From NCBI GenBank assembly GCA_964431835.1, contig CAYSKO010000009.1, positions 8,330 through 72,329 on the forward strand: 64,000 nucleotides of DNA, in the 5' to 3' direction. Positions 2 through 64,000 of this stretch are shown here, piece by piece. Every line of letters begins with the position of its first letter. Position 1 is the first letter of the stretch. The position numbers were made by a program, and so were the translations under genes. Origin of the DNA: an uncultured Planctomycetia bacterium (GTDB taxonomy: Bacteria > Omnitrophota > Gorgyraeia > 2-02-FULL-51-18). The notes under the pieces are model-generated. The model was not told the DNA's origin. It saw only the letters and a list, made by a program, of their open reading frames with translations, and did not search any database.

Positions 2-3000
2 GATTCCGCGCAGCGCGAGACCCGCCAGTACCGCGGCGGCTCGGCCGGCTCCTCCGTCATCTCCGCAACGATGAAACTGCAGACTTGGACCTATTTCAAG
101 GGCGACGCCGGCGAAGAGCGGACCGACTATCAGCAGAACTACAAGTCCAACGGCACCGACGTGCGGAACACGCAGATCAGCTATTACCAGGATCCCGCAG
201 GCGCCGCCGGCGGGCTCGTACGCGCGGCCGCGGCAGGCCCCGACGCGGCGCTTCGTGAGACGAAACTCTGGCGCGGCGGCACGCCGAATTCGGACACGAT
301 CTCCGCCACGATGAAGCTCCAGACGTGGACCTACTATCTCGGCGAGGTCAATGAAGAGAAGACGGATTATTCGCAGAATTACAAGTCGAACGGCACGGCG
401 GTGCGCAACACGACGCTCTACTACTACGAAAATCCGGCGGGCGCGGGTCTCGTGCGCGCCGTGGGCGCGAACGTCGACTCCGCACAACGCGAGACCAAGC
501 TCTACCGCGGCGGCACCGGCGGCTCGGCCGCCGTCTCGGCCGCGATGAAGCTTCAGACCTGGACTTACTTCCAGGGCCTTTCCGGGGAAGAGAAAACCGA
601 TTACGCGCAGAACTACAAGGCCGACGGCGCGGCCGTCCGTAACACGACGATTTCCTATTATGAGGACCCCGCGGGCGGCGTCGGCCTCGTGCGTGCCGTC
701 GCCGCGACCCCGGACACCGCGCTCCGCCAGACCAAACAGTGGCGCGGCGGCTCGGCCGGTTCCGACGCGATCACCGCCGCGATGAAGCTTCAAACTTGGA
801 TCTACTTCCAGGGCGTCGTCGGCGAGGAAAAGAACGACTTCCTGCAGAACTACAAAGCCAACGGCACCGACGTCCGGAACACGATGTTCTATTATTACGA
901 GGATCCGGCGAACGCCGCCGCCCTCGTGCGGGCGATCGACGCGAACGGCGATTCCGCCCAGCGCGAAACGAAGCTCTTCCGCGGTGGTGCCGCCGGATCG
1001 GACACCATCACCGCCGCGATGAAACTCCAGACGTGGTCGTACTTCAAGGGTCAGGTCAGCGAAGAAAAACTCGACTACGTGCAGAACTACAAGGCGGACG
1101 GCACGACGGTCCGCAGCACCGTGATCACCTATTACGAAGGTCCCACCGGCGGGCTCATCCGCGCCTCGGTCGCCGACGTCGACTCGGCTCAGCGCGAGAC
1201 CAAGAGCTGGCGCGGCGGCGTGGCCGGTGCCGACACGATCTCCGCCACGATGAAACTCCAGACTTGGACGTACTTCCTCGGCGAAGTAAACGAGGAGAAG
1301 ACCGACTACTCACAGAACTACAAGTCCGACGGCACGACGATCCGCAACACGACGCTCCATTACTACGAAGACCCCGCGAACGCCGCGGCTCTCGCGCGCG
1401 CGGCCACTGCCGGAGCGGACTCCGCCCAGAAGGAAACCAAGCTCTACCGCGGCGGCGCCACCGGCTCCGACGACGTCTCGAGCCTCAAGCTCCAGACTTG
1501 GACCTACTTCAAGGGAATGGCCAACGAGGAAAAGACCGATTACCTCCAGAATTACAAACTCGACGGCACCACCGTCCGGAACACCCAGCTTCATTATTAC
1601 GAGGACCCGGCGAACGCGGCGGGTCTCGTGCGCGCGACGGCCGCGGACGTCGATTCCGCCCAGCGCGAGACGAAGCTTTACCGCCGCGGCACCGCGGGCA
1701 CGGACGCGCTCGCCGCCAACATGAAGCTCCAGACCTGGACGTACTTCCAGGGTGTGGCGAACGAAGAAAAGACCGATTACGTTCAGAGCTATCGCACCGA
1801 CGGCGCCACCGTCCGCAACACGACGATCAATTACTACGAAGACCCGGCCAACCCGGCCGGTCTCGTGCGCGCGGTCGCGGCCAGCGTCGATTCCGCCCAG
1901 CGACAGACGAAGGTGTACCGCCTCGGAACGGCTGGCTCGGACAACGTCTCCGCCCTCAAACTTCAGACCTGGACCTACTTCAAGGGCGAGGCGAACGAGG
2001 AGAAGATCGATTACCTGCAGAACTACAAGTCCGACGGCGTCGGCCTCCGCAACACCCAGATCAATTACTACGCCGATCCCGCCGGCGGCACGGGCGTCGT
2101 TCGCGCCACGGCCGCGGACGTCGACTCCGCCCAGCGCGAGACGAAGCTCTGGCGCGGCGGCACGGCGGGCTCGGACGTCATTGGGGCGACGATGAAATTG
2201 CAGAACTGGAGCTACTTCAAAGGCGACGCGAACGAAGAGAAGCTCGATTATCTCCAAAACTACAAGGGCGATGGCACGACGGTCCGCAACACGCAGGTCA
2301 GCTACTATCAGGATCCCGCGAACGCTGCCCCGACGGCTCTCGTGCGCGCCGCCGGCGCCAACTCGGATTCCGCCCAGCGCGAGACGAAGCTCTACCGCCT
2401 GGGCACTGCCGGCTCGGACAACGTCTCCGCCCTCAAGCTGCAGACTTGGACCTATTTCAAAGGCGACGTGAACGAAGAGAAGACCGACTACCTCCAGAAC
2501 TACAAGGTCAACGGCACGACGGTCCGCAACACGACGATCTCGTACTACGAGGGCGCGACCGCCGCCGCCCTAGTCCGCGCCGCCGCCGCCGATCCGGACG
2601 CCGCGCTCCGCGAGACCAAGACGTGGCGCCAGGGCACGGCCGGCTCCGACACGATCGCCGCCACGATGAAGCTCCAGACCTGGACCTACATGAAGGGCTT
2701 CGTCGGTGAAGAGAAGACGGACTTCCTCCAAAACTACAAGTCGAACGGCACCGACGTGCGCAGTACGCAGGTCCACTACTACGAAGACGCGGTGAACGCA
2801 GCAGCCGTCGTTCGCGCCGACGTCGCGGGCCCCGACTCGGCAATGCGTCAGACCAAGCTCTACCGGAAGGGAACTGCCGGATCCGACAATGTCGCGAGCC
2901 TCAAGCTCCAGACCTGGACCTATTTCCTCGGGACTTCGGGCGAGGAGAAGACGGATTACCTTCAGAACTACCGCACCGACGGCGCGACCGTCCGAAACAC

Positions 3001-4700: not shown

Positions 4701-7700
4701 GCGATCAGGCGCTCGTGCGCAGCGATTCCTTCAAGAAAGGCGCCACCGGCTCCGACAGCACCTCCGGACTCAAGCTTTCTGCCAAGAGCTTCTTCAAGGG
4801 CCTCTCGAGCGAGGAAAAGACCGACTACGCACTCAATTACAACGGTCCCGCGGGTCAGGAAGACGTGGTCTCTGAGACGACGTCCTTCTACGGGGAAGCG
4901 AATCCGAGCCCCGACTACCGCGCTCAGGATGCGTACCTCTACGATCCGATGAAGCGCACTGAAACCCGCATCGGTGGTTCGAATAACGGAACCAACGACG
5001 GCCGTAAACGCACGTTCTCGTACTTCACGGGCAGCTCGGGTGAAGAGAAGGTGCTCTTCACGCAGTCGTACACCTACGACCAGCTCGTGTACGAGACCAC
5101 GAAAAACGCGTACGACCCGAACGACGGCCGCATGACCGAGTCGACGACCTACCGCCGCGGCAGCGAGGGCGTCAGCACCGTGACGGGCCTCCTTAAGAAG
5201 AGCAAGACGGTGTTCGCCGGCGAAGAGAGTTACGAGAAGGTGCACGAGTCGTTCGCGTACCGTCCGAATGGGTCGCTCAAGAACCACACGCTGTCCGAGT
5301 ACGAGGGCGGCTTGCTTGCGACGAACCCGAACATTCCGTTCGAAGCGGCTCTCCGCCGCCAGCAGACCTTCTACGGCCCCGCCTCGGCAGGCCGCCGCGT
5401 GAACGAATCGGTTTATCTCGGGGACTGGAGCGAGGAAAAGATCGACAGGATCACCGATTATAAAGGCGTCGTCACTCAGCACTATTACGACGGGTTCTTC
5501 TTCACTCCGGCCGGCGGCATGATGATGCCGAACGCCGCGCAGCCGAACAAATACGAGCTCGTCACGCGCACGGAGATCATCGGAAACGGCGACGTGAGCT
5601 ACTTCGGCATCAACCAGTTCAAGGAATCGCAGCAGAAATTCCAGACCGACTACAAGGGCACCATCACGACGTACGTTTATGATGCTTCCGACGTGCTCGT
5701 GAAGACGTCGGCCATCCAGACTGTTGCCCGCGCGATCGGCCTCGCCGGCTTCGTGCCGGAGCAGTCGGAGCTCGCGACGTTCTTCGAGCGCGATCTCTAC
5801 CTCGACACACGCGCCGTGTTCTCGACGAACGGCCTCAACAATATCACCTACAACCGCTACGACGGCGGCACCGGCGACCTCTTTTACACCATCGAGGTGA
5901 CGAACGCCTTCGCGGGGGCCGTCGCCGCCGTGAAATCCGCACCGGCCTCGATCGGAGCCTTCATTGGCGGCCTGACCGGCAACCCCGACACGTTCGTCCC
6001 CTCGGGCGGCCTCGGCGTGAACAAGATGACGAAGACTTACATGGAGTACGACCCCGACGACGGCACGACGCGCGCCTCGTTCCAGTTCAGCCCCAGCGGC
6101 AAGCGCATCGCCTTCACCTACGAGAAGATCATCCAGCCGACGTTCCCCGATGCGTCGAAGCGCTACCGCACGCTCGTGACGCGCACCTCGATGGGCATCG
6201 CCTCGACATTCGATTCGATCACGATTCAGAACAAGTACGGCCGCGTGACCGAGACCATCGACGCGGGCGGTATCTTGAGCTACTCGTACTACGTCCCGCC
6301 GCCCGGCCTGTGGGGTGTGCCGCTTAACGAGCAGACCTCGGTGCTCAATACGATCACGAAGTCGGATCTGAACGGCAAGACTCTCCAGACCCTGCAGACC
6401 GAAGTCTGGAACAACCAGGTCCCGATGTCCAACGAGATGGGCGAACAGGCGTTCAACACGCAGATCCTGACGCGCACCGAGTACCGCTATATGGAAGATC
6501 CGAGCACGGGCCTCCTCATCACCGCCGAAGCGGAGACCTATGCGGGCACGATTCGCATCCGCCGCCAAGTGTTCGACCAGTACATGCGCGTCACCGAAAT
6601 CTACGAGTGGCTGCCGACCGAAAACGGCCAGAAGCTGTGGGGCTTGGCGCAGAAATTCACGTACTACACGCCTCCGGGATACGGCCAGTTGAACCTGGGC
6701 GCCGGCGGGATGCTTCCGATGCCGACCAACGCGATCGCCTCGATCGTGAATGGCGGCGCGGTGAACGTCGGCGGCAACCTCGGCGGCGCTTCGCTGACCG
6801 GCGATGCGCTCACCGCGTGGGCCCTCAAGATGATCAACGCCGGCGACGCGTGGAGCAAGTACCAGACGATGGGTACGGGCGTCACGATGGCGATCCTCGA
6901 TTCGGGCTTCAACCTCGATTCCACCGCGGTCTGGAGGAACGCCGCGGAAGCTGCGGGCCTGCCGGGCGTCGACGACGACGGCAACGGCTACATCGATGAC
7001 GTCGACGGCTGGAACTTCGTCGCCGGCAACAACGACGTCTCGGACAAGCTCGGCCACGGCACGAACGTTGCTCGTGCGGCGCTGGCGGCGGCTCCCGGGG
7101 CGAACGTGATGCGTCTCAGCGTTCTCGACGAGTTTGGCCGCGGCACGGTCGAGAAGATCGCCGAGGGCATCGTCTACGCGGCCCGCAACGGCGCGAAGGT
7201 CATCAATCTTTCGATCGGCGGCGGTCTCCTCGACCTCCAAAGCTTCGGCATCGTCCGGACCGCGATCGAGACCGCAATGCAGATGGGCGCGCTCATCGTC
7301 GCGGCCGCCGGCAACCAGGGCAAGGAAGTCGATCCGTACTCGATCGCCGCGATCCAGGGCGTCATCGGCGTCGGCGCCAGCGACCAGGCAGACAAGAAGA
7401 GCGCTTTCTCGAACGTCGGCGGCAACGTCCGGATCGTAGCGCCTTCCGAGAGCGGCACGTCGATGGCGGCTCCGCTCGTCGCCGGCGCGGTCGCGCTCCT
7501 TATGAGCAAATATCCGTACAAGTCCACCGAAGAGATCCGCGGCCTACTCGAAGCGGGCGCGGTCGACCTTGGCGTTCCGGGCTTCGACCGTGAGACCGGC
7601 GCGGGCCGCCTCGATGTTGGCCGCTCTCTCGCCCTCGCGGCGCTTGGCGGTCCGATTTCGCCGCTCGCTCCCCAGGGTCCCGGCCCCGGCGGCTCTCCCG

Positions 7701-10700
7701 TTCCTCCGCCCGCGGGCGGCGAAGACCGCGGCGATCTCCTTTCGGCCCAGGATGGCATTGAGAGTGTCGAGATCACGATGCCCGAAGGCGGCAAGATCCG
7801 TTTCCCCGAAGGCGGCACGGTCGTCAAGAAGGGCGCCACGATCGTTGTGTCGGCCAACGGCGAGATCTCGGTCGAACCCGGCGAGGCCGTCACGCTGATC
7901 GGTGCCGCGAAACTCTTCCTGGTCGGCCCCGCGCTTATCCGCTCGCTGAACAACAACGTCGTTCTCACGTTCCCCAACGGCGGCGCGGTAAACCCGCCCG
8001 CGAAGCAATTTATCCCCGTGAGCGCGGGCAGCAGCGTCGGTCTCGAGGCGGGGGCCAAGCTTTCGTTCAAGAGTGGCGGCACCGTCACCGCGTCGGGCTA
8101 CGCGCGCGTGCGCCTGACCGCCGCCGGCACGCTGACCTTCGCGAACGCGACCCGTGTGATCCACAAGGGCTCTCCGATCATGGTCCCCGCGGGCGGAACA
8201 CTCGCGCTTGACGAGAACGAAGAGGTCATCATGCCGGACGGCGGCAAGGTGACCCTACCGTCGGCCGGAAGCATCCAGGCGGGCGAAACCGCGATCAACG
8301 TGACGCTCAACTCCGCGGCCGAAGTCGCACTCGAGGAGCAAGCGAGCGCCACGATCAAGGACCGCATCTCGAACATGTCTCTCGATGCGGCCAAAACTTC
8401 CGGCGTAATGTACATCGCTGGAAGCGCCCTCACGCTCGACCCGAACACCCGCGTGTACGGCTTGACTGGCCTGCCGACCACGCTTGCGGAGCTCGAGACG
8501 ACGTACCTCGACAACCGTCAGCGTACCTATCTCAAGTTGCTCGTCTCGAAGGACTCGTATGGACAGTGGCGCGCGGACCGCATCGATATGGTCCCGGCCC
8601 CGATCGAAACGACCGCGGGCCAGATCGACAGCCTCTACAACCCGAACGGTCTGAGCGTCCTGCCCGGCGTGCTCGACGGCACGAACGCGGCCGCCGGATT
8701 CGTGCGCTTCAACGACAACGATATCCGCGTGCTCGAGAGCACGATCATCAAGGACGCGAAGGGGAACACGATCACGGGCACGACGGCCGAGAAGATCGCC
8801 GTCCTCGAGCGCATCCGCCTCGAGGCCGAGGCCGACGGCATGATCCCGACCGTGAAGCTCGTCGCCACGAAGTCGGCCGACGGCTGGCAGGCTCTCCAGA
8901 TCCTCGTGACCACGAACCAGCCGACCGATCTCAACCCGACCCGGTTCACCGGCGCGATCACGGCGATCGATATGGCCAAAGGCGAGCTCACCTTCGACGG
9001 TAAGAAGATGACGTTCGACGCGGGCACGTTCATCGACAGCGTCACGGGCGAAGCGATGGAAGCCGCAGCCCTTAAGGCGTTCTTCGACGCGAACGTTTCT
9101 CGCAGCGTCGGTACTTTCGCGAAAGTCAACGCACGCCGCATCAACGGCGAATGGAAACTCGAGCGCATCGGCGTCATCTCCGACAGCGAGGGCGACGCGA
9201 AGCTCTTCGGCACGCTCGAGCTCGTGACCATCGGTGTCGCGCCAGCTCCGACGACAGTCAAGATGAACGGAAAGACGTTCACGCTCGACGCGACGGCTGA
9301 GCTTCTCGACGCCAACGACGCGCCGATCACTGCGCAAACTTTGAGTTCGATCCTCGGCCAGCAGGCGCTGGAAGGCGTCGCGACGAAGATCGATGTGAAG
9401 CTGAAGGCGACCCCGTCCGGCGTGAAGATCACGTCGCTCCGCACGCGCACCCGCCTGCAGTCGACGCTGAATCACACCGCGCAGGTCGTCTCCGTCGTGA
9501 TCGATCCGAACGACCCGACGAAGGGCACGATCGACTTCGGCTCGGGCGTGGTCGCGACCGTGGACGCCGGGACGGTCCTTCGCGACTCGCGCAGCCGCAC
9601 GATCACGCTCGCCGACCTGAAGCCCGAAGATTACGTGCAGATCCGCCTCGTGCAGACTCCCGAGGGCTGGCACGCCGAGCGCGTGACGATCTCCGACGGC
9701 GCCGCGCCGGTCAGCTCCATGACCGGCCCCGTCAACTCCGTGAACGTGAACGCCAACACGCTTTCGATCGCCGGCGTCACCGTGAACGTTTCACAGGACG
9801 CGACCGTCGAGGACGTCGAAGGCCGCATTTTCCCCGGCGGCCTCGCCGATCTGAGCGCCCTTCTTCAGGCCGGCCAGGTCCGCGTTTCCATCAAACTCGC
9901 GCTTCGCAACGGCCAGTGGATCGCGGACCGGATCGTCGTGCAAAGCGTCTCCGCGAAGGCGACCGAATTCGCCAGCTCCTCCATCCAGGCCGCGCACCTG
10001 ACGACGGACGCGCAGGGCAACGTCGTTTCGATGACGGTCAACGGCGAGACGGTGCGGGTCGGAAACGGCGGCACCGACGGCTTCTTCACGCGCGTCGAAC
10101 TGAACTACAAGGATCTCACCGACGTCGCCGGTCTCCAGCGCATCGGCATCCGCACGGACGCCAATTTCCCGGTGAATGACCCGATGTACACGGCCGTCAA
10201 GGGCCTGAACGGTCTTCTGACCGGAGCTTCGCCCACCATCGTCGACCCGACGACGCCCGTCACCGTGAACGTATACGCGGTGAAGGTCGGAAACGAGTGG
10301 CGCGCCTCGAAGGTCGTCGCCCGCACGATCGACGAACTCGCGGGCGGCCCCGGTTCGACGCTGAACGGCCCGCTCGAGGGGGTCGATCTCGACCGGCAGA
10401 TGATCACGATCAACGGCCAGTCGATCGTCGTCTTCAACCCGATGGCCGTCTTCGACGCTAACGGAGAATCCTACTCGCTGGCGGCCCTCAAGGAACTCTT
10501 CGAGGCCAACCGCCTCCGCGGCATCGAGACATACCTGAACGTCAGCTCCGCGCGCGGCTACAACCTGCAGACGAAGGCGATCGGCCACGGCCAGACGGCA
10601 ACGATCAAGAAGACCGTGACGGTGGCTCGTGACTCCAAACTCTCGTTCAACTGGAAGGTTTCCTCGGAAGCCAACGACAAATTCAGCTTCTTTATCGACG

Positions 10701-13700
10701 GCGTTCGGGTGGGCGCCGGCATCGGCGGCGAGATCGACTGGGCGAAGGTGACGACCGACCTCTCGGCCGGCGATCACGTCCTCGAGTGGAAGTACGTGAA
10801 GGACGGCGCCGTTTCGGCTGGTCAGGACGCGGCATGGCTCGACGAAGTGTTCATCAAAGCGAACACCGTCGACGTCGCGCACGGCGAGCCGCTTTCCGCG
10901 TTCGGCCGCATCGCGCTGCCGCCCGACTTCTCCTCGCCGTCCGACAATCCGTTTTACCTCCAGTCCGACACCGCGCGCGATTCCGGCGGCTGGGCCGCGC
11001 AGGCCGGGCGCGTGGAGATCGGCCAGACGAGCACGATGCAGCGTCAGGTCACCGTCGGCGCTCCGACCACGATGAGCTTCTGGTGGAAGGTCGATTCCGA
11101 AAGCGGCAACTCGTTCAATTTCTACGTCGACGACTTCGCGACGCCGGTCCGCACGGTCTCGGGCCGGAACGGCGGCTGGCAGCTCGTGACGGTGGATCTC
11201 TCGGCCGGCGCCCACACGCTTCGCTGGTCTTATAAGAAAACCGCCGCGAACGTCTCTTCGCAGGACACGGGTTGGATCGACGACCTCCGCATCGGCGACG
11301 AGGTCATCGACCGCTCGTTCAACCACCCGCAGGGCGTGCGTGCGCCGCTGCCGTCCGGATGGACGACGGGCGCCGCCGTTTGGACGAACCAAAACATTCT
11401 CGCTTCTGACGCGGCCGGCTTCGCGCTGCAGGCCGGCTCGACCGCGGCCGGAGCTACGTCGTACGCCGAGAAGACGATGACGCTCGCCGCCGCGGGGCTC
11501 CTGCGCTTCAAGGGCCGCCTTTCCTTGCCCGCGACCGACAAGCTCCTCCTTTACGTGGACGGCGCCGCAACGCCGGCGGTTACGATCACCGGAACCGCCG
11601 GCTGGATCGACTCGGGCGACCTTTCGCTTGGCGCGGGCGCGCACACGCTGCGCTGGGTATTTGACCGCTCGGGCACCGTCGGCGACGCGAGCGACGGCGC
11701 CTGGCTCGACGAAGTTTCCGTCCGCTACCCCGTCGCCACCGAAGCCTTCTCGTATCCCGCGGGTACTTCGCTTCCGCTACCCGCCGCCTACACGGTCGCC
11801 GGTGCGGGTTGGGCCAACCAAAACTCCGTTTCGTACGACAACGGCGGTTGGGCCGCGCGCGCGAACGCCACCGCCGCCGCCGCGAAAGCTTCGATGACGC
11901 GCACGCTCGACCTTCCGGACGCGGGGACCTTCAAGTTCCGCTGGAAGATGGAAGACGCACACGCCAACGACAAGATGAACGTCTACATCGACGGCGTTCT
12001 CCGCGCGACGCTCGCCGCCGCCGACGGCACGGCTTGGATCCAGAAGTCTTTCGACCTCGCCAAGGGCGAGCACACAGTGAAATGGGAGTACGACCGGACG
12101 ACTTCCGCCGGAGCCGCCTCGAACGACAAGGTGTTCGTCGACACGATTGAGGTCGGGACCGACCGCACCGAAACCTTCACGTATCCCGCGGGCACGGAAC
12201 TTCCGCTCCCGGCGGCCTTCACCACCACCGGCGGTTGGGTGAACCAGAACGCGGTCACGGTCGACATCAACGATTTCGCCGCGCGCGCGGGCTCGACGGC
12301 GGGCGGCGCGAAGTCTTCGATGACGAAGACCCTCACGCTGGACGACCCCGGTTCGGTCACGTTCAAGGTCCAGATGCAGGACCTGCACGCCAACGACCGG
12401 GTTCGCTTCTACGTGGACGGCGTTCTCAAGACCACGCTCTCGGCTGCCGACGGCGCGGGTTGGCTGCAGCGGACGGTGACCGGTCTTTCGAAGGGTTCCC
12501 ACCAGCTCAAGTGGGAATACGATCGCTCCGGCACCGCGGCGACCGTGCCGGCCAACAACAAGGTCTTCGTCGATCAGGTCGACGTCACACACGACCTCTA
12601 CTCCGAGACCTTCTTCTACCCGCCGGGGACGGAGATCCCGCTGCCGACGGGTTTCGTGACCAACAACTGGGTGAATCAGAACACGACCTCGTTCTCGGCC
12701 GGCGGTTTCGCAGCCCGCTCGGGCGACGTCGAAGCCGGCGCAACCTCCTTCATGACGCGCTCGTTGACGCTGACGAATCCCGCTTCGATCAAGTTCAAAT
12801 GGAAGCTCGAGGACGTTTCGGCGACCGACCGTCTGCATCTGTACGTGGACGGCCAACTTCGTGCGACGCTCGATCCCTCTGAGACCGGCTGGCTCGACCG
12901 CGCGGTTGCAATCGACAAAGGCACCCACGAGGTGAAGTGGATGTTCGACCGCAGCGGCACGGCGGCGGGCGGGTCGAAGAACAAGGCCTTTGTTGATCTC
13001 GTCGACGCAACCTACGATCCATTCACCGAGACCATGGTTTATCCCGCGAATACCGTCCTCGGACTTCCCGCGGGCTACACGACCGTCGGCGGATGGAAGA
13101 GCCAGAACAACGTCGCTTTCGACACGGGCGGCTACGGCGGGTTCGCCGCGCAGGCGGGGTCCACGGCCGCGGGCCAGACGACTTCGATGTCCAAGACCGT
13201 GACGATGCCGCAGGCCGGTAAGATGACCTTCCGCTGGAAGTTGGCGGGCGCCGCCGTGGGCGACAAGTTCAAGGTGCTCGTCGACGGCGTCGAACGTACG
13301 GCGAACACGCTCTCCGCCGACGCGGATTGGGCGCTCGTGACGCTGGACGGCCTTTCCGCCGGTGCGCACGAGATCGTTTGGGCCTATGAGCGGTCCGCTT
13401 CGGCTGGTTCGGCCAACGACCAGGCCTACGTCGACGAGATTGTCGCCACCGTCGAACGGACCGAGACTTTTATCCACCCCGCGAACACGGAGCTCGCTCT
13501 TACCGCCGGTTACGCCGCCACGGGCGCGGGCTGGGTCCTTCAGAATACCGTCGCCGCGGACACCACGCCGTTCGGCGGCTGGGCCGCACGTGTGGGCGCG
13601 ACCGCGGCGGGCGCCTCGTCGGGCCTCAAGAAGACGTTCAATTACGCCGCCGCGACCAAACTTTCTTGGCGCGTGAAGCTCGGCAGCCTCGCCACGGGCG

Positions 13701-55700: not shown

Positions 55701-58700
55701 GCATCCTCAACGCCGACATGGACGGGGCCCGAACGAAGGTGGAAGCCGAGAAGTCCGAGCTCGCCCGAGCCGAAGGGGAAGAGGCGAAGGCCAAGGCGGA
55801 AGCGGATCGCGCGGGCCAGGACGCCGCCACTGCGGAGGCCGAGTATATCAGCGCGTCCTCCGAAGCGTCCCGCGCCGAAGCGATCCGTACGGGTCTTGAG
55901 GAAAACACCAGCCGCACCCAAACCCGCGTCGAAGAGACGACCGCCGCCGTCGAAGAAGCCCGCACGCGCGTGGCCGAAGCCGACGCCCGTCTGGGCGAAG
56001 TCGAATCCAAGGGCACCGCCGCTCCCGAAGCGTCCGCAAAGCCCACCGCAGAGGCCGCGCAAGATGCCGCCCGCGCGTACGAAAGCGCCCGAGCGGAAGT
56101 CGAGCGCGTCTTTAAGATCGTGGAACGCGCCCAAGGCGAACACGCCGCCCTTCTGGGATCCAAGAGCCTGGTCAAGGGCATGCTCGAGAAGCTGAACGCC
56201 GAGGTCGAAACCCTCGAGACGAAGAAACAGCAGCTCGAGACGATTCTCGAAGCCTTGAACGTCAAACTCCAGAGTGCCGAAACCCGCGCCGCCGACGGCC
56301 AGCGCCGCGTGGCGGAAGCGGAAGGACGTCTCGAGCAGGCCCGCACGAACCGCGACGCCCAGGCGCCGCGCCTTGAGGCGACCCGCCGCGAAGCGCGTCA
56401 GGAACGCCAGCGTGCGACGGTCGAGCGCGAAGCTGCCGAAACGACGGCGGGCGAAGCGCGCTCCACGGCCGAAACGGCCCGCGCCACCGCCGCCGAATCG
56501 CGCCGCGCGGAAGAGCCTCTCCGCCAGAAAGCCGCCGAAACCCAGGCCAAGCTCGCCGAAAAACGCGCCGAGCGCGACCGGGCCGCCGAGGCCACGAAGC
56601 CCGAAGATGTCACTCGCCTCGAGTCCGAGATCCGCGAAGCGGAAGCCCAGGCCGAAACCGCCGCCCGCGAGCTGGCCGAGGCCGAAGGCAAAACCGGCGA
56701 AGCCGAAGCCGCCGCTCGCTCCGCGGCCGCCGCCGAAACCGCCGCCGAAACCGAAGTTTCGCGGACGCGCGTCGAAGAAAAACGCCTCGGCGAAGAAGCC
56801 GAAACGCAGGAACGCGTCGCCGCCGAAGCGGAATCCCAGAGCCGCGACCTTGACCGCCACGTCGCGGAGGCCGAGCGCCAGGTTTCGGAGGCCCGCGCCG
56901 ACGTGAGCCAGACCCGCGCCGAAGCCGCCGACACCGGCCGTGAGATGAACGAGACGCGTCGCGAGATCGAGGAGATCGAAGACCGCATCAACGTCCTCAA
57001 ACTCCAGATCGTGGGCCTCCTCACCCAGCTTTCCCAGCTCGACGACGACATCGAGAAGGCCGCGCAGCGCGTCGCCGAAGCCAAGCTCGATCTCTCCAAG
57101 GCCCGTGCCGCGGAAGAGAAGGCCCAGGATGCCGTCGCTGAGACCCTGCCCCAGCCGACCATTCACGACGCCGTCAGCTTCGCCGAAGCGCTCCCGTCGA
57201 TGGAAGCGCGCCTCGTCGGCCAAAAGATGCCGCCGTCCGAACGCCGCGCCCGCATGGCGGATCTCGCCGGGAAAGCTCTCGAGCTTGCGCGCGTCGAATA
57301 CGAACGTCGGACCATCGAAAAGAAACTCGGCGTGGGAGAAGGCAGCACGATGACCGTGGGCGAGATCGCGGCGCGGTACCACCAGGCGCTCGAAGGCGTG
57401 AAGAAATTCCTCGAAGCCTCACCGAAGCCCGCGAACGCGGCCTCCGCCGCCGCCCGTGCGCGACTGGTCGAACGTCTGGCCAAGACGCTCGCCGCCCAAG
57501 AAACGCCGGTCGTGAAGGGCCTCGAAGTGAAAGGGGAGAGCGTCGTCGAGATCGTGGGCGCGGGCAAGAAGGTCGGCTTCGATTCGCCCGACGTCATGAG
57601 CCTCGCGGATCTTTCGAAAGCGCACGCCGACTCCTTCCGTACGCGCACTGTCGCCGAGCTCGCCGATCATCTTTCGAACAACGCCGCCGAGCTCCGGCGC
57701 GTGGAAGCGCACCTCGAGAACCCGACGCGCCCGACGCTTCAGTTCGAGCCATTCGGCGAAGCGAAGGTCGAAATCGACGGCCGCAAAACCGCCGCGCGCA
57801 TGGAAATCACGAACGAAACGCTCAAGAAGGCCGTCGCGGAAGTCGAGAAACGCCAGGTGAAGGCGCTGGCGGAATTCTTCGAGAAGAACCCGGAGAAGGC
57901 CGCCGCCTACCGCGAGGCGCTCGAGGCCCAGGCGAAGAAACAGTCCGAGAACGCGCAGGACGTCTCGCAAGCCAAAGACACGATCGACGGCTTGGCTCGC
58001 ACGGCGCTCGTCGAAGCGCTCGAAGCTCTGCCTCCGGCCGCCCACGGCGTCCGCGTCGAAATGCTCCGCCTCGCGCTCGGCCTCAACGGCAACGTTCCGG
58101 CCGCGATCCTGGCTCTCCAAAACGCCGGTCTCGCTCCAAAGACCGGCGAAACCGCCGCGGCGAAGCCTGCCGAGCGCGACACGCTGATCCGCCTCCTTCT
58201 CGACCTGCCGCCCGCCGCGCGGAACGCGGCGCTCTCATCTCTCCGCGCCGCCGAGCGCACGCACCGCGCCGGGGAAGCGCGCCAGACGATCGAACGCATG
58301 GAGAAGCTCACCCTCGAAGAGCGCGAGACGCTGAACCGCGCCGCCGAGACGGGCGACCTGGACACGCTGACGGGCAAGCTCGAGCCGCTCAAGGCGTTCG
58401 GCCGCGACGCCCTCTACGAAGCCACCGAGCTCCGCGGCCAGCGCGTGGCGGAGGCGTCCTCCGCCGCCCGCGTCGGCACCGCGATCGACGCGCTCATGCG
58501 CCTCAACGTGGACGCCGCCGGCGCCGCGAAAATACGCACCCAGCTTGAGTCCGACATCGCCAACCGCGGCAAGGAAGGCTACGTCGACAACCGCACTCTC
58601 TTCGATTCGAAGCTCGCGGAGCCGATCAAGTCGTTCGCGAGCGAAACGCTCGTCGAGGCCGCTCGCCGCATCGAAGCGGGCGAGGGCGCGAAGGGCCGCG

Positions 58701-61700
58701 TGACCGCCGCCCAGCTCGAGACGCTCCGCACGAACCTCGCCGAAGGCGCCGCTCCGAAGGCCCCCGAGGCGCTTCGCCGCTTCGACGCGGAAATCCTCGC
58801 CGAAGCGCTCGAAGTCGGCAAACTGGAAACTCTGAAGGCGGCCGAGATCGTCCGCACGCTGACTCTGGCCGAGCGGAACGCGATCCGCGAGCTCGGCGCC
58901 GTCGACGGAACGCTCGCCCGCTTCGACGCCGAAACACTCGCGACCGCGCTCGGCATGAACAAAGCCGAGCTCGCCGCGGCCCGCAAGCTTCTGGACGGCG
59001 TGCAGGAGACGGTGCTTCGCGGAATCCTTTCCGCGCTGCCCGACGGCGCGCGTTCCCTGACTGTTCGCGACATCCTCGACGCCGCCCGTCCCGCCGACGG
59101 CATCCTGAGGGACAAAGTGGAACTCGCCAAGGCGGAGTTCGACGCCTTGAAGCTCCACGCCGAGGAGCGCGAGGCGATCGCGGCCGACGCGGCCGCCGGC
59201 CGTATCGACGCGGCGCGCGAGAAACTCACCCGCGCCGCCGAACGCGCGGCCGTGGCGCTCGAAACCGAGCTCACCGAATCGGTCACCGCCAAGCGGATCA
59301 CGCCCGAAGTGAAGGCCGAACGCCTCGAGGCCTTCCGTAAAGGTCTCGCCGAGACGATCGCGGCCGTGGAAGCTCCCGCCCTCGGCGAAGCGATGCACCG
59401 CCTCACCAACTCGGCGGAGGTCCTGAAGGCGCGCAGAGCCTTCAAGGCGTTCGAACAATTCCTCGTGTTCCAGGTCAAGGCGGGCCGTATGACCGAGGGC
59501 CAGCGCCGTACCGCGCTCCTCGAGATGCGGAACGAGCTCCTGCACGGCCGGTCGGACGCGGTCAAGGAAAATGCGGTCAAGGCGCGCTTCGACGGCTTCA
59601 AGGCGTTCTCCCTCGAAGTGCTTCGCGAGGCGGCCGGCGTGAGCGCTGACGTCGCCTCCCGCGCGCACCAGGCGGCCCAGCAGACGATCTTCGAATTCTC
59701 TCGCTCTATCCAGCGTGATCTTCTGGCCAAGGTCGAAAAGCTCACTCTTCTGGCCAAGGTCGAAGCCGGGGATCTCGCGGTTCTTCCGGAAGGCCTCCGC
59801 GGAAAATCGCTCGAGGTGCTGCGTCAGGCCCTCGGGGCGACCTCCGAGCAAGTGGTTTTCGCCCGCGAAGCGGTCGGCGCCCTTGCGATTCCGGAGCTCC
59901 GCCGCCTGGGCGTCGAAGTGGCCCGCGATCTTCTGCGCCGCGCCGAAGCCGCCGAGCGCGACGGCCGCGCCGCCGAAGCCGCCGAGCTGCGCGACGCCTT
60001 CGCGATGGTCGGCGCCCGCGTCGCCGTGGAGCTCGAAGCCCACGCCGAACGGGCCGAAAAGAACGGCAACAAGGCCAAAGCCGCGGAGTTCCGCGACGCC
60101 GCCCGGTCGCTCGTCGAGGAAATCCGGAGCGAAGCGCTGGCCGCGGAAGAGGTCGCCCGCCTCTCGTCCGCCGAACTCGCGAGCGTGAAAGAAGCCCTCG
60201 TCCGCGGCGAAGTGAAGGGAGAGCTGGCCCTCTTCGGCGAACGGGCCGTCCGCAAGGCCGTCCTCGCCCGCGAAGCCGCGGAAGGCAAGTTCCGCGGTGA
60301 CGGCACGACGCGCGGCGAGCTTCCCGAGAAGGTCCGCGCGTTCTCGATCGAAACCCTCAAAGCGGCGCTCGGCGTCCGCGCCGAGCTCGTGCGTCCCGTG
60401 ACGAAGGTCACGGTCGAAGGACGCGAGCTCTCGAGCGCGGTGGTCCGCGACGCGCTCGCCCGCAACGTGGACGCGCAAGCCGACGCGCTCCTGGCCCGCT
60501 TCAAGGTCGCGCCCGCTCCGCGTTTCTCCGCCGCCGACTGGGTCTCTTCAAAAGTCGGCCGCGAGACGCGTGACGCGCGGGCGCAGCGCAAGCTCACCGA
60601 GACCCTTCTGGGCATGGGCGAAGCGAAGACGCACAAATTCGGCTACGAAGCGCCTCCCGCGCCGGCTCCTCGCCGGACCCGCAGCGGCGCGCCCGCGCGT
60701 GAAGGCAAGCTGGATTTGGGAGTGTTCTTCGACGCCTACCAAGTCCTTACCCAGGGCCGCGCCCAGGTCTTCAGCCGTGAAGCGATCAACCGCGCGCTCC
60801 AGAAACTCGAACAGAAGACGATGGGCGTCGACGCCGCCGCGAAATTCGTGCTCGAATGCCTCACCGTGGGCAACACGATGGAGCAGTACAACAAGCTGAA
60901 GACGCAGAAGCTCGACAAAGAAAGCGAAAGGGAGAACCTGGCCGCGCTGGAGGTCATTGCCAATCCGATGGAAGTTGCACGCCGCCTCGGCGAGTCCGTC
61001 GTCGAGAAGATCCAGGCGAAGGGCGAGGCGTACCTCCTTGCCAAAGAAGCGGTCGCCCAGCTGGAAAACGCGACTACCCGCAGAGCGCTCGAAGTCGCTC
61101 AGAGCGAACTCATGACGGCCTTCCGCGAAGCGCGCGGCGGCGCGAAGAACCAGTCGTTCCTCGATCTGGCCGTCAAGACGGGCATGGTCGAGAAGGCCGA
61201 ATTCGGGGACGTGTTCAACGCCTACAAGGCGCTCCGCGTCGGGGAAACCTCCGGTGGCTACGCCGAGTTCAACACGAAGAACCGTGCGTCGATCGAGCGC
61301 GTGATGTCCGAGTACAAGCTCGAGTTCGACGCGTACGAGAAGAGGCTTTCCGGCGACCCGATGACCCGGATCAAGCAGCTCAACGAGATCATGCGCCAGG
61401 AACAGGCGGCCGCGCCGGGCGAACGCGTCGGCGTGATCAAGGCGACGGCGATCACGGATCTCATCTTCCGCAATTCGTACGTGTCGGAAGGCACGAAGAT
61501 GCACCTGAAGGACGCCGGCTGGCGCCCGGGACAGCGCCTCATGATCATGCATCTCATGGGGAACAACAGCGTCTCGCTCGGAACCGCCGGCGGCAAAACG
61601 TACACCCTCATGGGCTACCACATCATGCGGCGCCTCACCGACGGCGAGACCTACCGCGGCAAGCAGGTCGTGGAAAGCCCCGACGCCGTGAACCAGATCA

Positions 61701-64000
61701 TCTCCGCCATGGAGCTCAAACTCCGCGTGGAAGGCAAGAAGACGGACGCGGAGATCTTCAGCGAGCTCGAATCGCGCCGTTCGGAGCTCAACTCCGAGCA
61801 TATCGTCATTAAAAACATGATGAAGGCCTCGGGCCTGCGCCTCTTCAACGCGACCGCCTACCAGGGCGGCGAGCTGCGTAACCACTCGGAACGGAGCGCG
61901 CGCGTGATCGACGCTCATACCGACAAGAACACGATCGTCGTCATCGATACCGTCAACAACGTCCACTTGAGGAACGAAGCGAAGTCGGCTGCCGAGAAGG
62001 GCGACACCAAGCTCTTCGAAGCGCTCCTCAAGTCGCGCTTCATCACGCTCGACGAATTCCACAAGTTCCTTTCGAACAAGAACTCGGGCATCATCGCGGA
62101 AAACCAGCGCATGCCGGAGCCTCGCGAAATCGAGTCGCTCATGGAAAACGTGATTTCGAAAATCGCGGACTCAAACTTCAAGCTCCATTGGGAGCCGGTG
62201 CGTTATTCCACGGAGACCGAATTTGAGGCGGCCGTCGCGAAGTACACGAACGGCGAAGGCGCGAACGAAATGAAGATCCTCATCAATTCCGAGACCGGAC
62301 AGATCAACCTGAGCAAGGCTCTCAACGACAGCCTGCGCACGGCGCTCGGCCCCGAGTTCGGTAAGGTGCGCTCGGTCATCTCGGCGCTGGACGCGAACGA
62401 ATTCCATTACAAGATCCATACCGACAAGGAAGGCAAGACGAAGGTCATCCCGGTCAACGGCCGCGAAGGCACGCCGAGCCCCGATTCGAGCTTCCAGGAC
62501 ATCGAGTACTCGATGACGCTGGCCCTGAAGCACACGAAGGGCAACACGGCGACCGCCCGAGAGATGGTCAGCCGCAGCGATACCTCGATGTCGAGCGCGA
62601 TCGCCGAGAGCGTGCACATCCCCGGCGCGGTCGTCACCGGCGTCTCGGGCACGCTCGGCGGCCTCGAGGCTCTCCAGAAATTCCAGATTGGCGAGAGGGT
62701 CGTGAACATCTCGGGTTCCGTGCTCGACGCGGTCCGCGTGGGCGGCACGAGGGGCCAGATCTTCGACATGTCGACCGGCGAGCAGGAATGGCTCGACGGC
62801 ATCAATTCGTCGCTCCGCGAGAACGTCACGGTACTCCTGGTCGTGAGCGCGAAGGAGCGCGACGCGATCGAGAAGTTCCAGAAAGGCGACTTATTCAAGT
62901 CCGCCGACGGCAAGCCGGTCGAAGTCGCGAAGATCGACTCCAACACGAGCGGCGAATCGAAGAACGGCCAGGCTTCGGAGATGGATCAGCTCGTCAAGTC
63001 GCCGTGGGGCAAGGACGGCCGCGCCCGCGTCATCCTCATCACCGAGCGCGGCTGGACGGGCCGTGACTACGCCCAGAACGCGGAGCTCGCGAAGTTCGTC
63101 GACGGCAAGCTCATGCACCAGTCGGTGCACATGGCCTTCTACAAGGCGCACACGATCGGCGCCTCCGACTTCGTGCAGGCCCTCGGCCGCGCCGGCCGCA
63201 GCGAAACCGAGGCCACGGTTCGCCGCTACTTCCTCGTGGACAAAACCGAGATCCGCCAGCGCCTTTCGGATCTGAACGACGGCCGCGTCCGTTCGGATTT
63301 CCGCCAGAAACTGAACGAGCGCCTCCGCGACAACCCCGCGGCGGTCGGCGAGACGCTGCGTCTCCTCAACAATTACGAGCGCCGCCTCAACATCGAAGAC
63401 TTGAGTCCCTCCGAACAGCTGCGCTTGAACGCTCAGTTCCTCGAGCTTTCCAACGCGATCGCCGACGGCGCGCGTCACACGGTCCGCGAGAACTGGCGCA
63501 GCTCGATCGAAATCGACCCGTTCCATCAGGCCATCAAGGCCGCCGCTCTCGCCGGCGGCAAGGGGAGCGCCCACTACCGCCGTCTGGACAAGGCTTACAA
63601 GGATCTCCTCGGCAAGCAGAGCGAAGGCGGCGATCTGACGCTGAAGGACGCCGGCGTGGGCAGCGGCGTCGACTTCGTGATGGACACGGCGCGCCAGAGC
63701 GTGAAGAACGCCAAGGAAGCGTGGAAGAACGTCGTCGACAGCATGGACGCGTCGAGCTTCGGCGCGGGCCGCCTTCTGGGCCGCGTGCCCTTCTCGATCC
63801 GCTTCTGGAAAGGCATCGTGCCGATTCCGTCGACTTCCGCGCCCGCGTACGAAGCGCGCCAGACGCTCGCCAAGCTCGAAGCGCTCGAGAAGGCTTTCCT
63901 GACCGGTAACATCGAAGCGACGCGCCTGCAGGTCGAGCGCGTCCAGCTCGGCCTCGACTCCGGCAAGGTCCGTGTCGAAACGCGCGGCATCGGCCGCCTC
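2..64000 (+). CDS. Internal fragment of a giant multidomain protein gene (21,333 codons in window; 5' and 3' ends lie outside the window)
   Basis: Continuous translation in the phase beginning at nt 2 gives protein-like sequence end to end. Hand translation at more than 10 checkpoints stayed in the same phase (atg 71, atg 545, GVTMAILD at 6881, GHGT at 7052, RWSYKK at 11222, atg 30527, atg 45986, Cys 51869, atg 52886, Lys 61595, GKVRVETRGIGRL at 63962..64000). The ORF track contains no + ORF in this phase, whereas an in-phase stop would have produced a reported Met-to-stop ORF, so there is no stop in 64 kb. Third codon positions are strongly G/C-biased in this phase only. Recognisable catalytic motifs (S8 triad, TGase triad, Walker A) all fall in this phase. 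Confidence 0.9.
6790..7650 (+). other. Subtilisin-like serine peptidase (MEROPS S8) domain embedded in the giant ORF; catalytic Asp/His/Ser all present
   Basis: Asp motif GVTMAILDSGFN (Asp codon 6899..6901). Calcium-loop-like DDDGNGYIDDVDGWNF. His motif DKLGHGTNVARAAL (His codon 7055..7057). NGAKVINLSIGGG, then AAAGNQG (oxyanion Asn region). Ser motif SESGTSMAAPLVAGAVALLMSKYP (Ser codon 7460..7462). Order and spacing D...H...N...S match subtilases. Confidence 0.85.
7750..10450 (+). other. Beta-rich region with several DUF5666-like short modules (tentative family assignment)
   Basis: Recurrent pattern G(T/S)V..VD....(T/S)I.V.G..V.V....(T/S)..........L..L..G..V.V. Examples: GTVLRDSRSRTITLADLKPEDYVQIRLVQTPEGWHAERV near 9570 and DATVEDVEGRIFPGGLADLSALLQAGQVRVSIKL near 9800. 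Family name is from memory of the DUF5666 consensus and is not verified. Confidence 0.35.
10570..14740 (+). repeat. About 10 tandem 140-aa beta-sandwich repeats (MAM/CUB-like jelly-roll; family tentative)
   Basis: Each unit shows ...G.W..Q.....(S/A)..S..I...........(S/T)F.WK(V/L)....(A/S).D.(F/L).(F/V)Y(V/I)DGV.......(G/D).W......L..G.H.L.W.Y(D/K)(R/K).(S/G)......D.A(W/Y)(I/V)D(E/D)(V/I). Units begin near 10570, 11000, 11330, 11740, 12170, 12610, 13030, 13470, 13900 and 14320 with X(T/G)F.YP.GT.LPLP.G(Y/F)T..G.W.NQN. Confidence 0.6.
14790..18670 (+). repeat. 7 tandem 185-aa repeats resembling Laminin_G_3 / concanavalin-A-like lectin domains
   Basis: Each unit contains ...Y(V/L)YFR(M/T)......GYA..(I/V)......(L/I)YR.......(I/L)......GAS(Y/F)DP(A/T).YH.LK(V/A)..DG..I.V.VDG........D..Y.G........(G/I)......P(V/I)WFDDV(K/R)(V/A). 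The WFDDV-type terminal motif recurs near 15285, 15840, 16400 (TFDDF), 16970 (IFDDF), 17525, 18085 (SFDDV) and 18655. Confidence 0.6.
18700..30450 (+). repeat. About 36 tandem 95-115-aa repeats (DUF5666-like beta modules; novel-looking array), some with Cys-pair inserts
   Basis: Period is about 300-340 nt. Recurring unit: G(E/D)W.(F/L)......(F/L)..........(S/T)LL..V......I.L.DG..I.(L/I)G...I(Y/F)WWNG.......(A/S).L...I......G..V. Examples start at 19378, 19687, 19960, 20270 and 20570, continuing to about 30450. Variant units carry Cys pairs: CAIGQGC (19241..19261), NCWNCY (23087..23098), NNCGSSLCP (23403..23425), CNSWSCY (27472..27489). Confidence 0.6.
30450..36450 (+). other. About 2,000-aa non-repetitive region of unknown function (mixed alpha/beta, many W/Y/D/N)
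   Basis: No internal periodicity seen by eye and no catalytic motif recognised with confidence. Contains the segment GISAFSAMSIF...AGAKLLVHMGDDHYITVDEYDAENDQIWFYED (30560..30930), which loosely resembles a papain/C39-like fold without the Cys. Confidence 0.4.
36450..42600 (+). repeat. About 21 tandem 85-115-aa repeats of a QQMRIQGPG family (unassigned)
   Basis: Unit: (F/V)...G(F/G)(S/A)(V/L).(A/V)(T/S)FE(K/L)(N/D)GV(S/T)QQMRIQGPG(A/S).VEV.V.(A/T)...DGT....AW(V/I)G(R/G).........NA...A..AA..DLST...REAF(M/L)..FE. The QQMRI motif occurs at roughly 38870, 39190, 39450, 39760, 40120, 40450, 40760, 41030, 41350, 41600, 41950 (TQTMRIAQAGG) and 42250; earlier copies are more divergent. Confidence 0.8.
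42900..44350 (+). other. Thr/Gly/Asn-rich beta region with YD/RHS-repeat-like motifs (tentative)
   Basis: Motifs of the Y.YD..G.. type: REFTYNPDGSS, EHSEYNADGDRTRMT, QRIVYNDGSVGVQTTRG, GVYRLNADGTVHYSGG, FRYTFQADGTVLATDVRTGR, TLNAAGNGVTWNENAS. No canonical RHS C-terminal DPxGL pair was recognised. Confidence 0.35.
45400..46540 (+). other. Polytopic membrane block: 8-9 predicted transmembrane helices (Gly/Ala-rich)
   Basis: Hydrophobic stretches of about 20-25 aa: SYVYIVGAIALAAATCWIPGV; VVTASIAAGVAFTVAVVAQVVA; ILFNAINAAAQSFALANGLAALGQLV; VTRAVTLGLTFAAANVAMTVGAQAV; ITAGMVWTAAIQGFVVGVTAGYGA; AITNGVIATARAVQYGVMFTVPSMIMCGLGFLLAAEVGAAA (probably two helices); VTAFVSGAIVGMIINYATS; TFGLGALEWGTMVSVPFTIANGLV; GGIAGALKGIIGWFHP. 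Short polar loops lie between them. The block is flanked upstream by beta repeats and downstream by alpha-helical/charged sequence. Confidence 0.6.
48590..49320 (+). repeat. About 4 tandem 60-aa alpha-helical repeats
   Basis: 180-nt period: N..(K/R)L.G.D..KL..(V/L)A.A...NA..L..AA.(I/V)LG.(E/G)(H/N).(A/S)V..AA..LA(N/D)AITKV......N, starting near 48595, 48775, 48955 and 49135. Confidence 0.5.
51780..52070 (+). other. Transglutaminase-like (papain-fold) domain core with Cys-His-Asp
   Basis: GEMIKEGVGVCRQKAMLVGFLLAEVGVKAKL (Cys codon 51869..51871). GETYGGHAWLTVEVNGKKFYFDPTWAEG (His codon 51986..51988, Asp codon 52031..52033). This reproduces the G.C...A.L...LLR..G(I/V).AR ... HAW.EV...G.W...DPT signature of transglutaminase-like cysteine-protease domains. 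Confidence 0.65.
53263..53400 (+). repeat. In-frame 18-nt (hexapeptide) short tandem repeat, about 8 units
   Basis: ETKIETETRTETETRTEAEVRTEAEVRTEAEVRMEAETRTEAE; nucleotide units such as actgaagccgaagttcgg / accgaagctgaagttcgc / accgaagcggaagttcgc at 53315..53368. Confidence 0.8.
57400..60550 (+). other. Alpha-helical region with recurring F..E.L..ALG-type motifs (unassigned)
   Basis: RRFDAEILAEALEVGK, ARFDAETLATALGMNK, FKAFSLEVLREAAGVSAD, RGKSLEVLRQALGATSEQ, VRAFSIETLKAALGVRAE each precede Ala/Leu/Arg/Glu-rich helices. Confidence 0.4.
61380..63260 (+). other. SecA-like SF2 (DEAD-like) ATPase motor domain: NBD1, PPXD-like insert, NBD2
   Basis: Q-to-Walker-A spacing identical to SecA: PGQRLMIMHLMGNNSVSLGTAGGKTYT (Lys codon 61595..61597; compare SecA [27 protein letters not shown]). 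Walker-B position is IVVIDTVNNVHLRNEA (compare ALVDEVDSILIDEA), so the catalytic Glu appears replaced. An insert of about 230 aa ends ...SMTLALKHTKGNTATAREMVSRSDTSMSSAIAESVHIPGAVVTGVSGTLGGLEA, paralleling the SecA PPXD C-terminal part and the KLAGMTGTADTEA motif. Motif V-like ARVILITERGWTGRDY (compare IATNMAGRGTDI). Motif VI-like FVQALGRAGRSETEATVRRYFLVD (compare [24 protein letters not shown]), codons 63184..63198 for GRAGR. Confidence 0.6.

Follow-up and report, generated by a model that had tools for sequence, protein, structure and literature searches.

Can 64,000 nucleotides (nt) of bacterial DNA be the interior of a single gene, and if so, what kind of protein would such a gene encode? 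The question is raised by positions 8,330 to 72,329 of contig CAYSKO010000009.1 (assembly GCA_964431835.1), a stretch that we refer to in its full length as the window. A preliminary description, made by reading the letters of the window, had proposed that all of it lies in one uninterrupted open reading frame (ORF), a fragment of a giant gene of more than 21,333 codons with neither end in view, and our analysis upholds each part of that proposal. By computed translation, none of the 21,333 codons in the plus-strand frame that begins at base 2 (63,999 nt) is TAA, TAG or TGA, whereas a per-codon stop probability of 0.0251, as given by base composition, predicts approximately 536 stops and a chance of about 1e-236 of finding none. 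The other frames contain 165 and 570 stops on the plus strand and 42, 494 and 872 on the minus strand, and the letters of the window are A, C, G and T only. GC content at codon positions 1, 2 and 3 of the open frame is 61, 47 and 85% (window GC, 64.6%), and the third position has the highest GC in 42 of 42 consecutive 1.5-kb blocks (73–88%, with position 2 never above 55%). Uniform third-position bias and so many expected stops show that the frame codes throughout and did not stay open by chance, in agreement with the earlier impression of protein-like sequence throughout.

Stops number just 42 in the minus-strand frame whose codons align with the sense codons, and its longest open stretch spans 7,932 nt. 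We rejected long antisense ORFs as genes: these 42 stops are exactly the 8, 13 and 21 sense TTA, CTA and TCA codons, and the open antisense frame is a by-product of the bias of sense codons toward C and G endings. Rfam and tRNA scans of the window found no RNA gene.

Both ends of the gene lie outside the window, which starts within a 78-aa repeat unit and ends approximately 250 aa past an ATPase module, at a point where homologues have 2,500–3,400 aa more. Since the homologue ORFs end 2,500–3,400 aa after that module, the 3′ end of the gene is placed beyond base 64,000, probably by at least some 2,500 codons; the full gene is at least 21,333 codons long and probably reaches approximately 24,000 or more. 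At 63,999 nt the frame exceeds the size by which West-Roberts et al. (2023; bioRxiv 10.1101/2023.11.21.568195) define large genes (more than 30,000 bp and at least 10,000 aa); for giant genes they set more than 90,000 bp and at least 30,000 aa. Its codon usage correlates with that of a high-GC Omnitrophota homologue gene at r = 0.81, which is mostly a GC effect.

Taken together, we consider it likely that this is a real giant gene whose product is a membrane-anchored, multidomain protein of the kind found in Omnitrophota and other members of the Planctomycetes–Verrucomicrobia–Chlamydiae (PVC) group, with a long repeat-rich N-terminal zone, a single transmembrane (TM) cluster and a helical C-terminal zone that includes an ATPase. 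The features of the window are as follows, with amino acid number n converted to nucleotide position as nt = 2 + 3(n − 1).

2..64000, + strand: uninterrupted frame that runs off both ends of the window, 21,333 codons with 0 stops and third-position GC highest in all 42 blocks
2..5521, + strand: array A, approximately 23 tandem units of ~78 aa (234 nt), aa 1–1840, running off the window start
6812..7621, + strand: S8 subtilisin-like serine protease, aa ~2271–2540 (Pfam PF00082)
10199..14731, + strand: array B, units of ~143 aa, aa ~3400–4910 (self-BLAST offsets 141–146 aa, identity 36–53%)
14669..18661, + strand: array C, approximately 7 units of ~185 aa with a concanavalin-A-like lectin fold, aa ~4890–6220 (offsets 183–190 aa)
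18899..28501, + strand: arrays D (aa ~6300–7970) and E (aa ~8130–9500), units of ~93–104 aa, identity 26–34% (self-BLAST)
28499..36601, + strand: non-repetitive stretch of ~2,700 aa, aa ~9500–12200 (no self-similarity)
36599..42511, + strand: array F, approximately 18 units of ~105 aa, aa ~12200–14170, identity 35–42% (self-BLAST)
45413..46921, + strand: the sole hydrophobic cluster of the window, Gly/Ala-rich, aa 15138–15640, with ~6–8 candidate TM segments
46922..61441, + strand: Ala/Glu/Arg/Lys/Gln/Leu-rich region of ~4,840 aa, aa 15641–20480 (composition)
51704..52021, + strand: transglutaminase-like (papain-fold) core within that region, aa 17235–17340 (Pfam PF01841)
53294–53397: 36-nt tandem repeat, 2.9 copies (Tandem Repeats Finder, TRF)
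61442..63271, + strand: two-RecA superfamily-2 (SF2) DExH ATPase, aa ~20481–21090 (motifs read by eye)
63272..63919, + strand: helical region after the ATPase, conserved with homologues, aa 21091–21306 (alignments)

The ATPase near the end of the window is an SF2 DExH motor, with Walker A GTAGGKT (aa 20527–20533), DEFH (20684–20687), motif III SGT (20882–20884), motif V TERGWTGRD (21014–21022) and motif VI QALGRAGR (21059–21066), and the D-E-x-H residues are nearly invariant in the alignment of its family. Walker B and motif III are 196 aa apart, compared with 180 aa in Escherichia coli SecA, and this 196-aa insertion corresponds in position to the preprotein-binding domain of SecA. The segments on either side also run parallel, with "SGIIAEN" after Walker B resembling "TPLIISG" of SecA and "SDTSMSSAI...GVSGT" before motif III resembling "LASITFQNYF...GMTGT". 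Structure prediction with AlphaFold2 gave an unusable model without an alignment (predicted local distance difference test, pLDDT, 36.9), and the model built from a 10-sequence alignment (pLDDT 71.7, predicted template modelling score 0.64) was used for fold comparison. Foldseek of this model against the PDB ranked SecA at positions 1–5 and 7–10 (E 1.4e-9 to 2.4e-7), with DinG, XPD and SNF2 next, and by two structure-comparison methods SecA is the best structural match, by a narrow margin. The modeled resemblance to SecA thus appears to be one of fold only, with membership of the SecA family unproven.

Who else carries such a module? Scanning 1.84 billion cluster representatives with HMMER and the last 1,200 aa of the window returned 11 proteins at E ≤ 1e-3, five of which come from Omnitrophota metagenome-assembled genomes (MAGs; P0001, P0003, P0008 and P0009) or from a "Deltaproteobacteria" MAG (P0006); the sources of some of the others are an unclassified bacterium, a GOS marine scaffold, JGI/IMG, NCBI/Logan and ENA. 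In the species genomes of GTDB one more was found, L004 (CAZSGP010000004.1, "uncultured Planctomycetia"), whose ATPase is the most similar to that of the window (39% identity). These relatives are multi-thousand-residue or truncated proteins, mostly of Omnitrophota MAGs plus the one "Planctomycetia" MAG, and there is an Omnitrophota MAG with a GC content of 63%. The nearest relatives of the ATPase would point to Omnitrophota or the PVC group as the source of the window. Pfam scans of P0004, P0006–P0009 and L004 yielded no domain, PF07517 (SecA_DEAD) included, and a search of the protein database with the sequence of the ATPase region returned nothing at E ≤ 1e-3. The ATPase family is therefore extremely small, and current domain libraries miss the module. 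The window itself and close relatives of it were not found in genome and metagenome contigs, in plasmids (megablast) or in phages (tblastn).

Similarity to the relatives is limited to the ATPase module and the approximately 200 aa after it (aa ~20,330–21,306), with BLASTP, tblastn and phmmer alignments to P0001, P0003, P0004 and L004 reaching aa 21244–21306. MCG3176814.1 (P0003; 6,331 aa, Omnitrophota Bin_62), MBI4432771.1 (P0001; 5,937 aa, partial) and L004 share the ATPase and the following helical region with the window at 29–39% identity over ~600–850 aa, and outside the module have nothing detectably similar to it. Among themselves these proteins are conserved further, with L004 and P0001 colinear over ~3,000 aa and an additional conserved block, 1,000–2,100 aa beyond the ATPase, common to L004, P0001, P0003 and P0005. 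The L004 ORF also has a Gly/Ala-rich TM cluster, ~2,300 aa before its ATPase; the TM cluster of the window shows no significant homology with those of L004 and P0001, so that the parallel is one of position only. The L004 locus (GC 47%, positions 2–19207) holds an ORF of more than 6,402 aa that continues upstream of the locus and has no Pfam match at all, with an HExxH-like motif (IAHEGLHAT) in its C-terminal part. P0003 is complete at 6,331 aa and has separate large ORFs upstream, whereas the window is one fused giant ORF. At the P0003 locus (L001; GCA_022072175.1, JAJVIE010000003.1), the gene is preceded on its own strand by ORFs of 3,709 aa (truncated at the locus edge), 928 aa and 1,732 aa and followed by a cluster of MBOAT, Asn-synthase, PP-binding and AMP-binding genes, then by a 12,700-aa ORF. 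In Bin_62, the counterpart of the N-terminal part of the window may thus be split into separate genes.

How, then, would the product of the window sit in the cell? Candidate TM segments in the hydrophobic cluster were called from hydropathy alone: on the Kyte–Doolittle scale, aa 15138, 15161 and 15364 score at least 1.9 and aa 15270, 15304 and 15399 score 1.45–1.54. The cluster has no homologue at E ≤ 1e-3 in the protein database. Amino acid composition switches exactly at this point, from 30–37% Ser/Thr/Asn/Gly on the N-terminal side to 59% Ala/Glu/Arg/Lys/Gln/Leu on the C-terminal side, and close Cys pairs are confined to the N-terminal side except for C17633/C17636. An ATPase needs cytoplasmic ATP, and S8 subtilases, LamG/DUF1080 domains and beta-sandwich arrays resembling carbohydrate-binding modules (CBMs) are typically extracytoplasmic domain types. 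The layout, with extracellular-type modules N-terminal and the ATPase C-terminal of a single TM cluster, is consistent with a protein that crosses the envelope, and the "envelope-spanning machine" of the preliminary description is a plausible reading, the membrane anchor visible in the window being an inner-membrane anchor only.

C-terminal of the cluster, a zone of at least 5,700 aa is rich in Ala, Glu, Arg and Lys. Judging by its composition, the region between the cluster and the ATPase (aa 15641–20480) is presumably alpha-helical or coiled-coil and cytoplasmic; it gives a weak match to the SMC-type model TIGR02168 (1.3e-4). AT skew is 0.38–0.44 at 50–58 kb, compared with 0.05–0.25 elsewhere, and this coincides with the Ala/Glu/Lys/Arg-rich helical region. 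The transglutaminase-like core embedded in it is a marginal Pfam match (PF01841; E 4.1e-5, 24.2 bits versus a cutoff of 23), with the triad C17290, H17329 and D17344 present and with further matches to PDB 9crn (E 0.0065) and NCBIfam NF045980 (0.0075).

The N-terminal zone, in turn, comprises approximately 15,100 aa rich in Ser, Thr, Asn and Gly, with six diverged tandem-repeat arrays. Array A, in which the window begins, shows TRF periods of 234 and 468 nt (69–70% matches) and self-BLAST offsets of 77–80 aa at a median identity of 62%, with the consensus KLQTWTYFKG..EEKTDY.QNYK.DGT.VRNT.I.YYEDPA..LVRA.A..DSAQRETKLYR.GTAGSD. The 78-aa repeat has no homologue at E ≤ 1e-3 in the protein database and none in metagenome contigs. 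In each unit, hairpin-like segments rich in Y, T and W take turns with a helix-like, Ala-rich one (LVRAxAAxVDSAQRE), a pattern reminiscent of the "antiparallel beta-helix with external alpha-helices" tubule predicted in Omnitrophota giants. An assignment of array A to RHS/YD-repeats was also considered, on a Y/D/G-rich hairpin likeness seen by eye only, and was dropped, with no PF05593 match at E ≤ 0.01 in aa 1–5000.

Downstream of array A lies the S8 subtilase (PF00082; E 8.8e-35, 120.8 bits versus a cutoff of 21.8), in which the catalytic residues D2300, H2352 and S2487 occur in order, together with the oxyanion residue N2438, and which is apparently active. It matches subtilisins in the PDB at E 3e-21 and the NCBIfam mycosin-like model at E 5.5e-27, the latter below that model's cutoff. 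Array B gives weak signals of CBM35-, CE2_N- and Big_7-type beta-sandwiches, with whole-protein values of 3.6e-7 for PF18099 and 3.8e-8 for PF17996 and no single stretch passing alone. The lectin-like units of array C match DUF1080/3-keto-disaccharide-hydrolase PF06439 (E 6.1e-27; 2 stretches, the best at aa 5706–5844), Laminin_G_3 PF13385 (E 9e-10; aa 5901–6023) and, in the PDB, a levanase CBM (E 8e-4). For arrays D and E, the Pfam scan gives sub-threshold matches only. The whole protein has 22 Cys in 21,333 aa, and close pairs occur in these two arrays at 6414/6420, 7696/7699, 7802/7807 and 9158/9163 (nt ~19241–27490); the pairs could form short disulfide loops or metal sites and would then hint at an extracytoplasmic location. 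The non-repetitive stretch that follows (aa ~9500–12200) has no Pfam or NCBIfam match, and array F, with a conserved core ..TFE..GV.QQMRIQGPG..VEV.. and DNA repeat families D6–D8 spaced ~252–350 nt, has no Pfam match.

On the strength of this layout, we suggest how the protein may work. The N-terminal part would lie outside the cytoplasmic membrane, where it could serve as a scaffold for adhesion and degradation, binding glycans and cleaving proteins on another cell or substrate, and the helical region, the papain-fold domain and the ATPase would remain in the cytoplasm. The SecA-like motor may use ATP to thread or hold the huge extracytoplasmic part across the membrane, or may move other substrates, and such a role was proposed by West-Roberts et al. 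for the SecA-like domains of giant proteins (bioRxiv 10.1101/2023.11.21.568195). Cleavage of the polypeptide by its two protease-type domains may occur as well. Taken alone, these mechanistic steps are tentative, and we would give them somewhat less than an even chance of being right.

Several observations weigh against the reading of a membrane-anchored giant with a SecA-like motor. Pfam and NCBIfam searches of the ATPase up to E 10 found no SecA or helicase family, PF07517 included; the family profile searched against the PDB returned no SecA and only a generic Mfd RecA2 domain at E 0.015; and hhalign gave a probability of 2.6% when E. coli SecA (sequence checked against PDB 6s0k) was compared with the family alignment. 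An even number of membrane passes is possible, which would leave both large parts on the same side, and the first two helices form a hairpin with Lys/Arg on both flanks. Finally, only ~7% of residues fall in any recognizable family by summed matched domain lengths, leaving ~93% without one. The results for the ATPase would suit a nucleic-acid helicase or translocase of the DinG/XPD, SNF2 or DEAD-box type, in which case the cytoplasmic part would be related to DNA or RNA: the motif is DExH where SecA has DEVD, profile searches yield only fragments of Mfd, DDX25 and NS3, and the scaffold and wing domains of SecA were not detected. SecA nevertheless tops two independent structure-comparison methods, the insertion between Walker B and motif III is placed as in SecA and the segments flanking it parallel those of SecA, a membrane anchor is part of the same polypeptide, and giant proteins are known from the literature for their divergent SecA-like domains (West-Roberts et al. 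2023), so that we regard a helicase as unlikely, if worth keeping in mind. Less likely still is a polypeptide that lies wholly in the cytoplasm, with the membrane as a tether only, and that would serve inside the cell as a scaffold or as a platform for several enzymes; this is the "TM-only" class of Nielsen and Lui. Such a protein would fit the possibly even pass number, the doubly basic first hairpin and the lack of a visible signal peptide, the N-terminus being outside the window, and TM-only is the prediction for 46% of the long proteins catalogued in Omnitrophota (Nielsen and Lui 2026; bioRxiv 10.64898/2026.06.07.730766); it fits poorly with typically extracytoplasmic S8, LamG/DUF1080 and CBM-like domains N-terminal of the cluster, with the Ser/Thr/Asn/Gly-rich, beta-repeat composition and short-range Cys pairs of that side, and with a coiled-coil-like C-terminal side that carries an ATP-dependent motor.

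The giant itself might be questioned, either as an artefact of assembly, with several shorter genes joined chimerically or through collapsed repeats into one 64-kb open frame, or as a polyprotein that its own S8 and transglutaminase-like proteases cut into many proteins. Repeats are error-prone places in short-read metagenome assemblies, the protein contains six arrays of them, and the window is without a match in any collection searched. However, the longest DNA repeats are at most ~83% identical and their copies 60–83% (TRF tandem repeats and DNA repeat families), too diverged for collapse; long near-identical repeats are absent from the window, as are inverted ones; by self-BLAST, ~40% of the ORF is unique, non-repetitive sequence; codon bias is uniform across the 42 blocks; and each random junction would have had to preserve the frame and escape stops. 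The order of TM cluster and then ATPase also recurs in the independent homologue L004, and genes of this size and far larger are real in long-read complete genomes (Nielsen and Lui 2026). The sequence thus suggests no collapsed or chimeric assembly, and we see an artefact as highly improbable, with a small residual doubt. A polyprotein has in its favor two protease-type domains, one N-terminal and one C-terminal of the membrane cluster, that each have a full catalytic triad, and West-Roberts et al. raise the same idea for C39 and S8 domains (bioRxiv 10.1101/2023.11.21.568195). We identified no cleavage sites or linker motifs, S8 domains of surface proteins usually target other substrates, and the transglutaminase-like match is marginal; full processing of this kind is about as doubtful to us as the helicase, and it is compatible, as a processing step, with the membrane-anchored giant that we favor.

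That giant could also be taken further, as one of a distinct, Pfam-unrecognized family of "self-exporting" surface proteins with a TM cluster, a helical stalk of ~4,800 aa, a SecA-like DExH motor and the conserved C-terminal block of the relatives. In such a protein, the membrane-tethered ATPase would drive the N-terminal region of the same polypeptide, more than 15,000 aa, across the membrane, and the hypervariable outer part, including the 78-aa array, would make up a filament of a new type for cell contact. We hold this extended version to be speculative and somewhat less probable than the helicase or the polyprotein; if true, it would amount to a one-polypeptide secretion system. Giant bacterial genes probe the limits of transcription, translation, folding and export, and the window adds a high-GC, nearly orphan example with an unusually simple layout, which would make it a cleaner model for self-export by a fused SecA-like motor than Omnitrophota giants with 50–300 TM helices. 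By itself, the window reveals no new principle, and its size would not surprise a specialist in 2026; what it does point to is a very small family of ATPase modules missed by current domain libraries.

Is the system as such new? Compared with SecA, the ATPase of the window has no significant sequence or profile similarity, and has DExH in place of DEVD. The helical scaffold, wing and C-terminal zinc-binding domains of SecA were not detected in the window, which includes part of the region after the ATPase, and where SecA has SecYEG as its partner and is soluble, the ATPase here is embedded in a giant membrane protein. Other very long proteins, namely the adhesin-like giants of Chlorobium chlorochromatii (36,805 and ~25,000 aa), the RCC1 type of Oscillospiraceae and SwmB, share very long ORFs and tandem arrays with the window and are thought to mediate cell–cell contact. 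They are dominated by haemagglutinin, fibronectin, RTX or RCC1 repeats, whereas none of those Pfam families is found in the window, and as described they are without a TM cluster followed by a large cytoplasmic ATPase part.

The closest parallels are the giants of Omnitrophota and the PVC group. West-Roberts et al. (2023; bioRxiv 10.1101/2023.11.21.568195) reported genes of up to 85,804 codons, most from Omnitrophota and others from further PVC phyla and Actinobacteriota; their products feature many TM regions, divergent SecA DEAD domains that lack scaffold and wing, peptidases of the S8 and C39 families, CBM35-like repeats and beta-helix tubules. Nielsen and Lui (2026; bioRxiv 10.64898/2026.06.07.730766) catalogued 3,650 proteins of at least 10,000 aa from 18 samples, 348 of them of at least 30,000 aa and the longest of 147,155 aa; a TM helix or signal peptide is present in approximately 94%, singletons make up 80% of the sequence clusters, and repeats are decayed at the nucleotide level. 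The preliminary description had counted a few established examples of genes this long and had seen in the window a candidate undescribed system; the catalog contradicts the former, and the latter falls with the prior publication of giants that combine TM regions, divergent SecA DEAD domains and S8 peptidases.

Within this class, the window differs in several respects. It has one TM cluster in 21,333 aa, whereas published proteins of at least 10,000 aa average ~22 helices, and its GC content is high (64.6%). PF07517, which defines the published SecA-bearing giants, is without a match in the window as in its scanned homologues. Of the C39 and S8 peptidases that serve as a criterion for the class, S8 alone was found, with no C39 peptidase in the window and the true N-terminus outside it. 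Archaeovorin-type giants carry glycosyl- and methyltransferases, glycoside hydrolases and NUDIX domains, for which the 21,333 aa of the window give no Pfam match beyond the lectin fold resembling DUF1080/3-keto-disaccharide hydrolase, and the dockerin (PF00404) and TSP3 (PF18884) repeats of dockerin-type giants have no Pfam match either, with weak CBM35_2-like signals in array B only. What the window shares with the giants of Omnitrophota and the PVC group is a single ORF of tens of kilobases that encodes TM helices, an S8 peptidase on the N-terminal side and a divergent, SecA-like motor of the DEAD/DExH type with no scaffold or wing domain detected, together with CBM35-like and lectin-like repeats in long arrays whose nucleotide tandems have decayed, and mostly unassigned sequence that is unique at the sequence level; the nearest relatives of its ATPase are themselves Omnitrophota proteins. 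Judged by these shared features, the window is a new example of a described class of giant proteins, almost wholly orphan in sequence, rather than a new kind of system.

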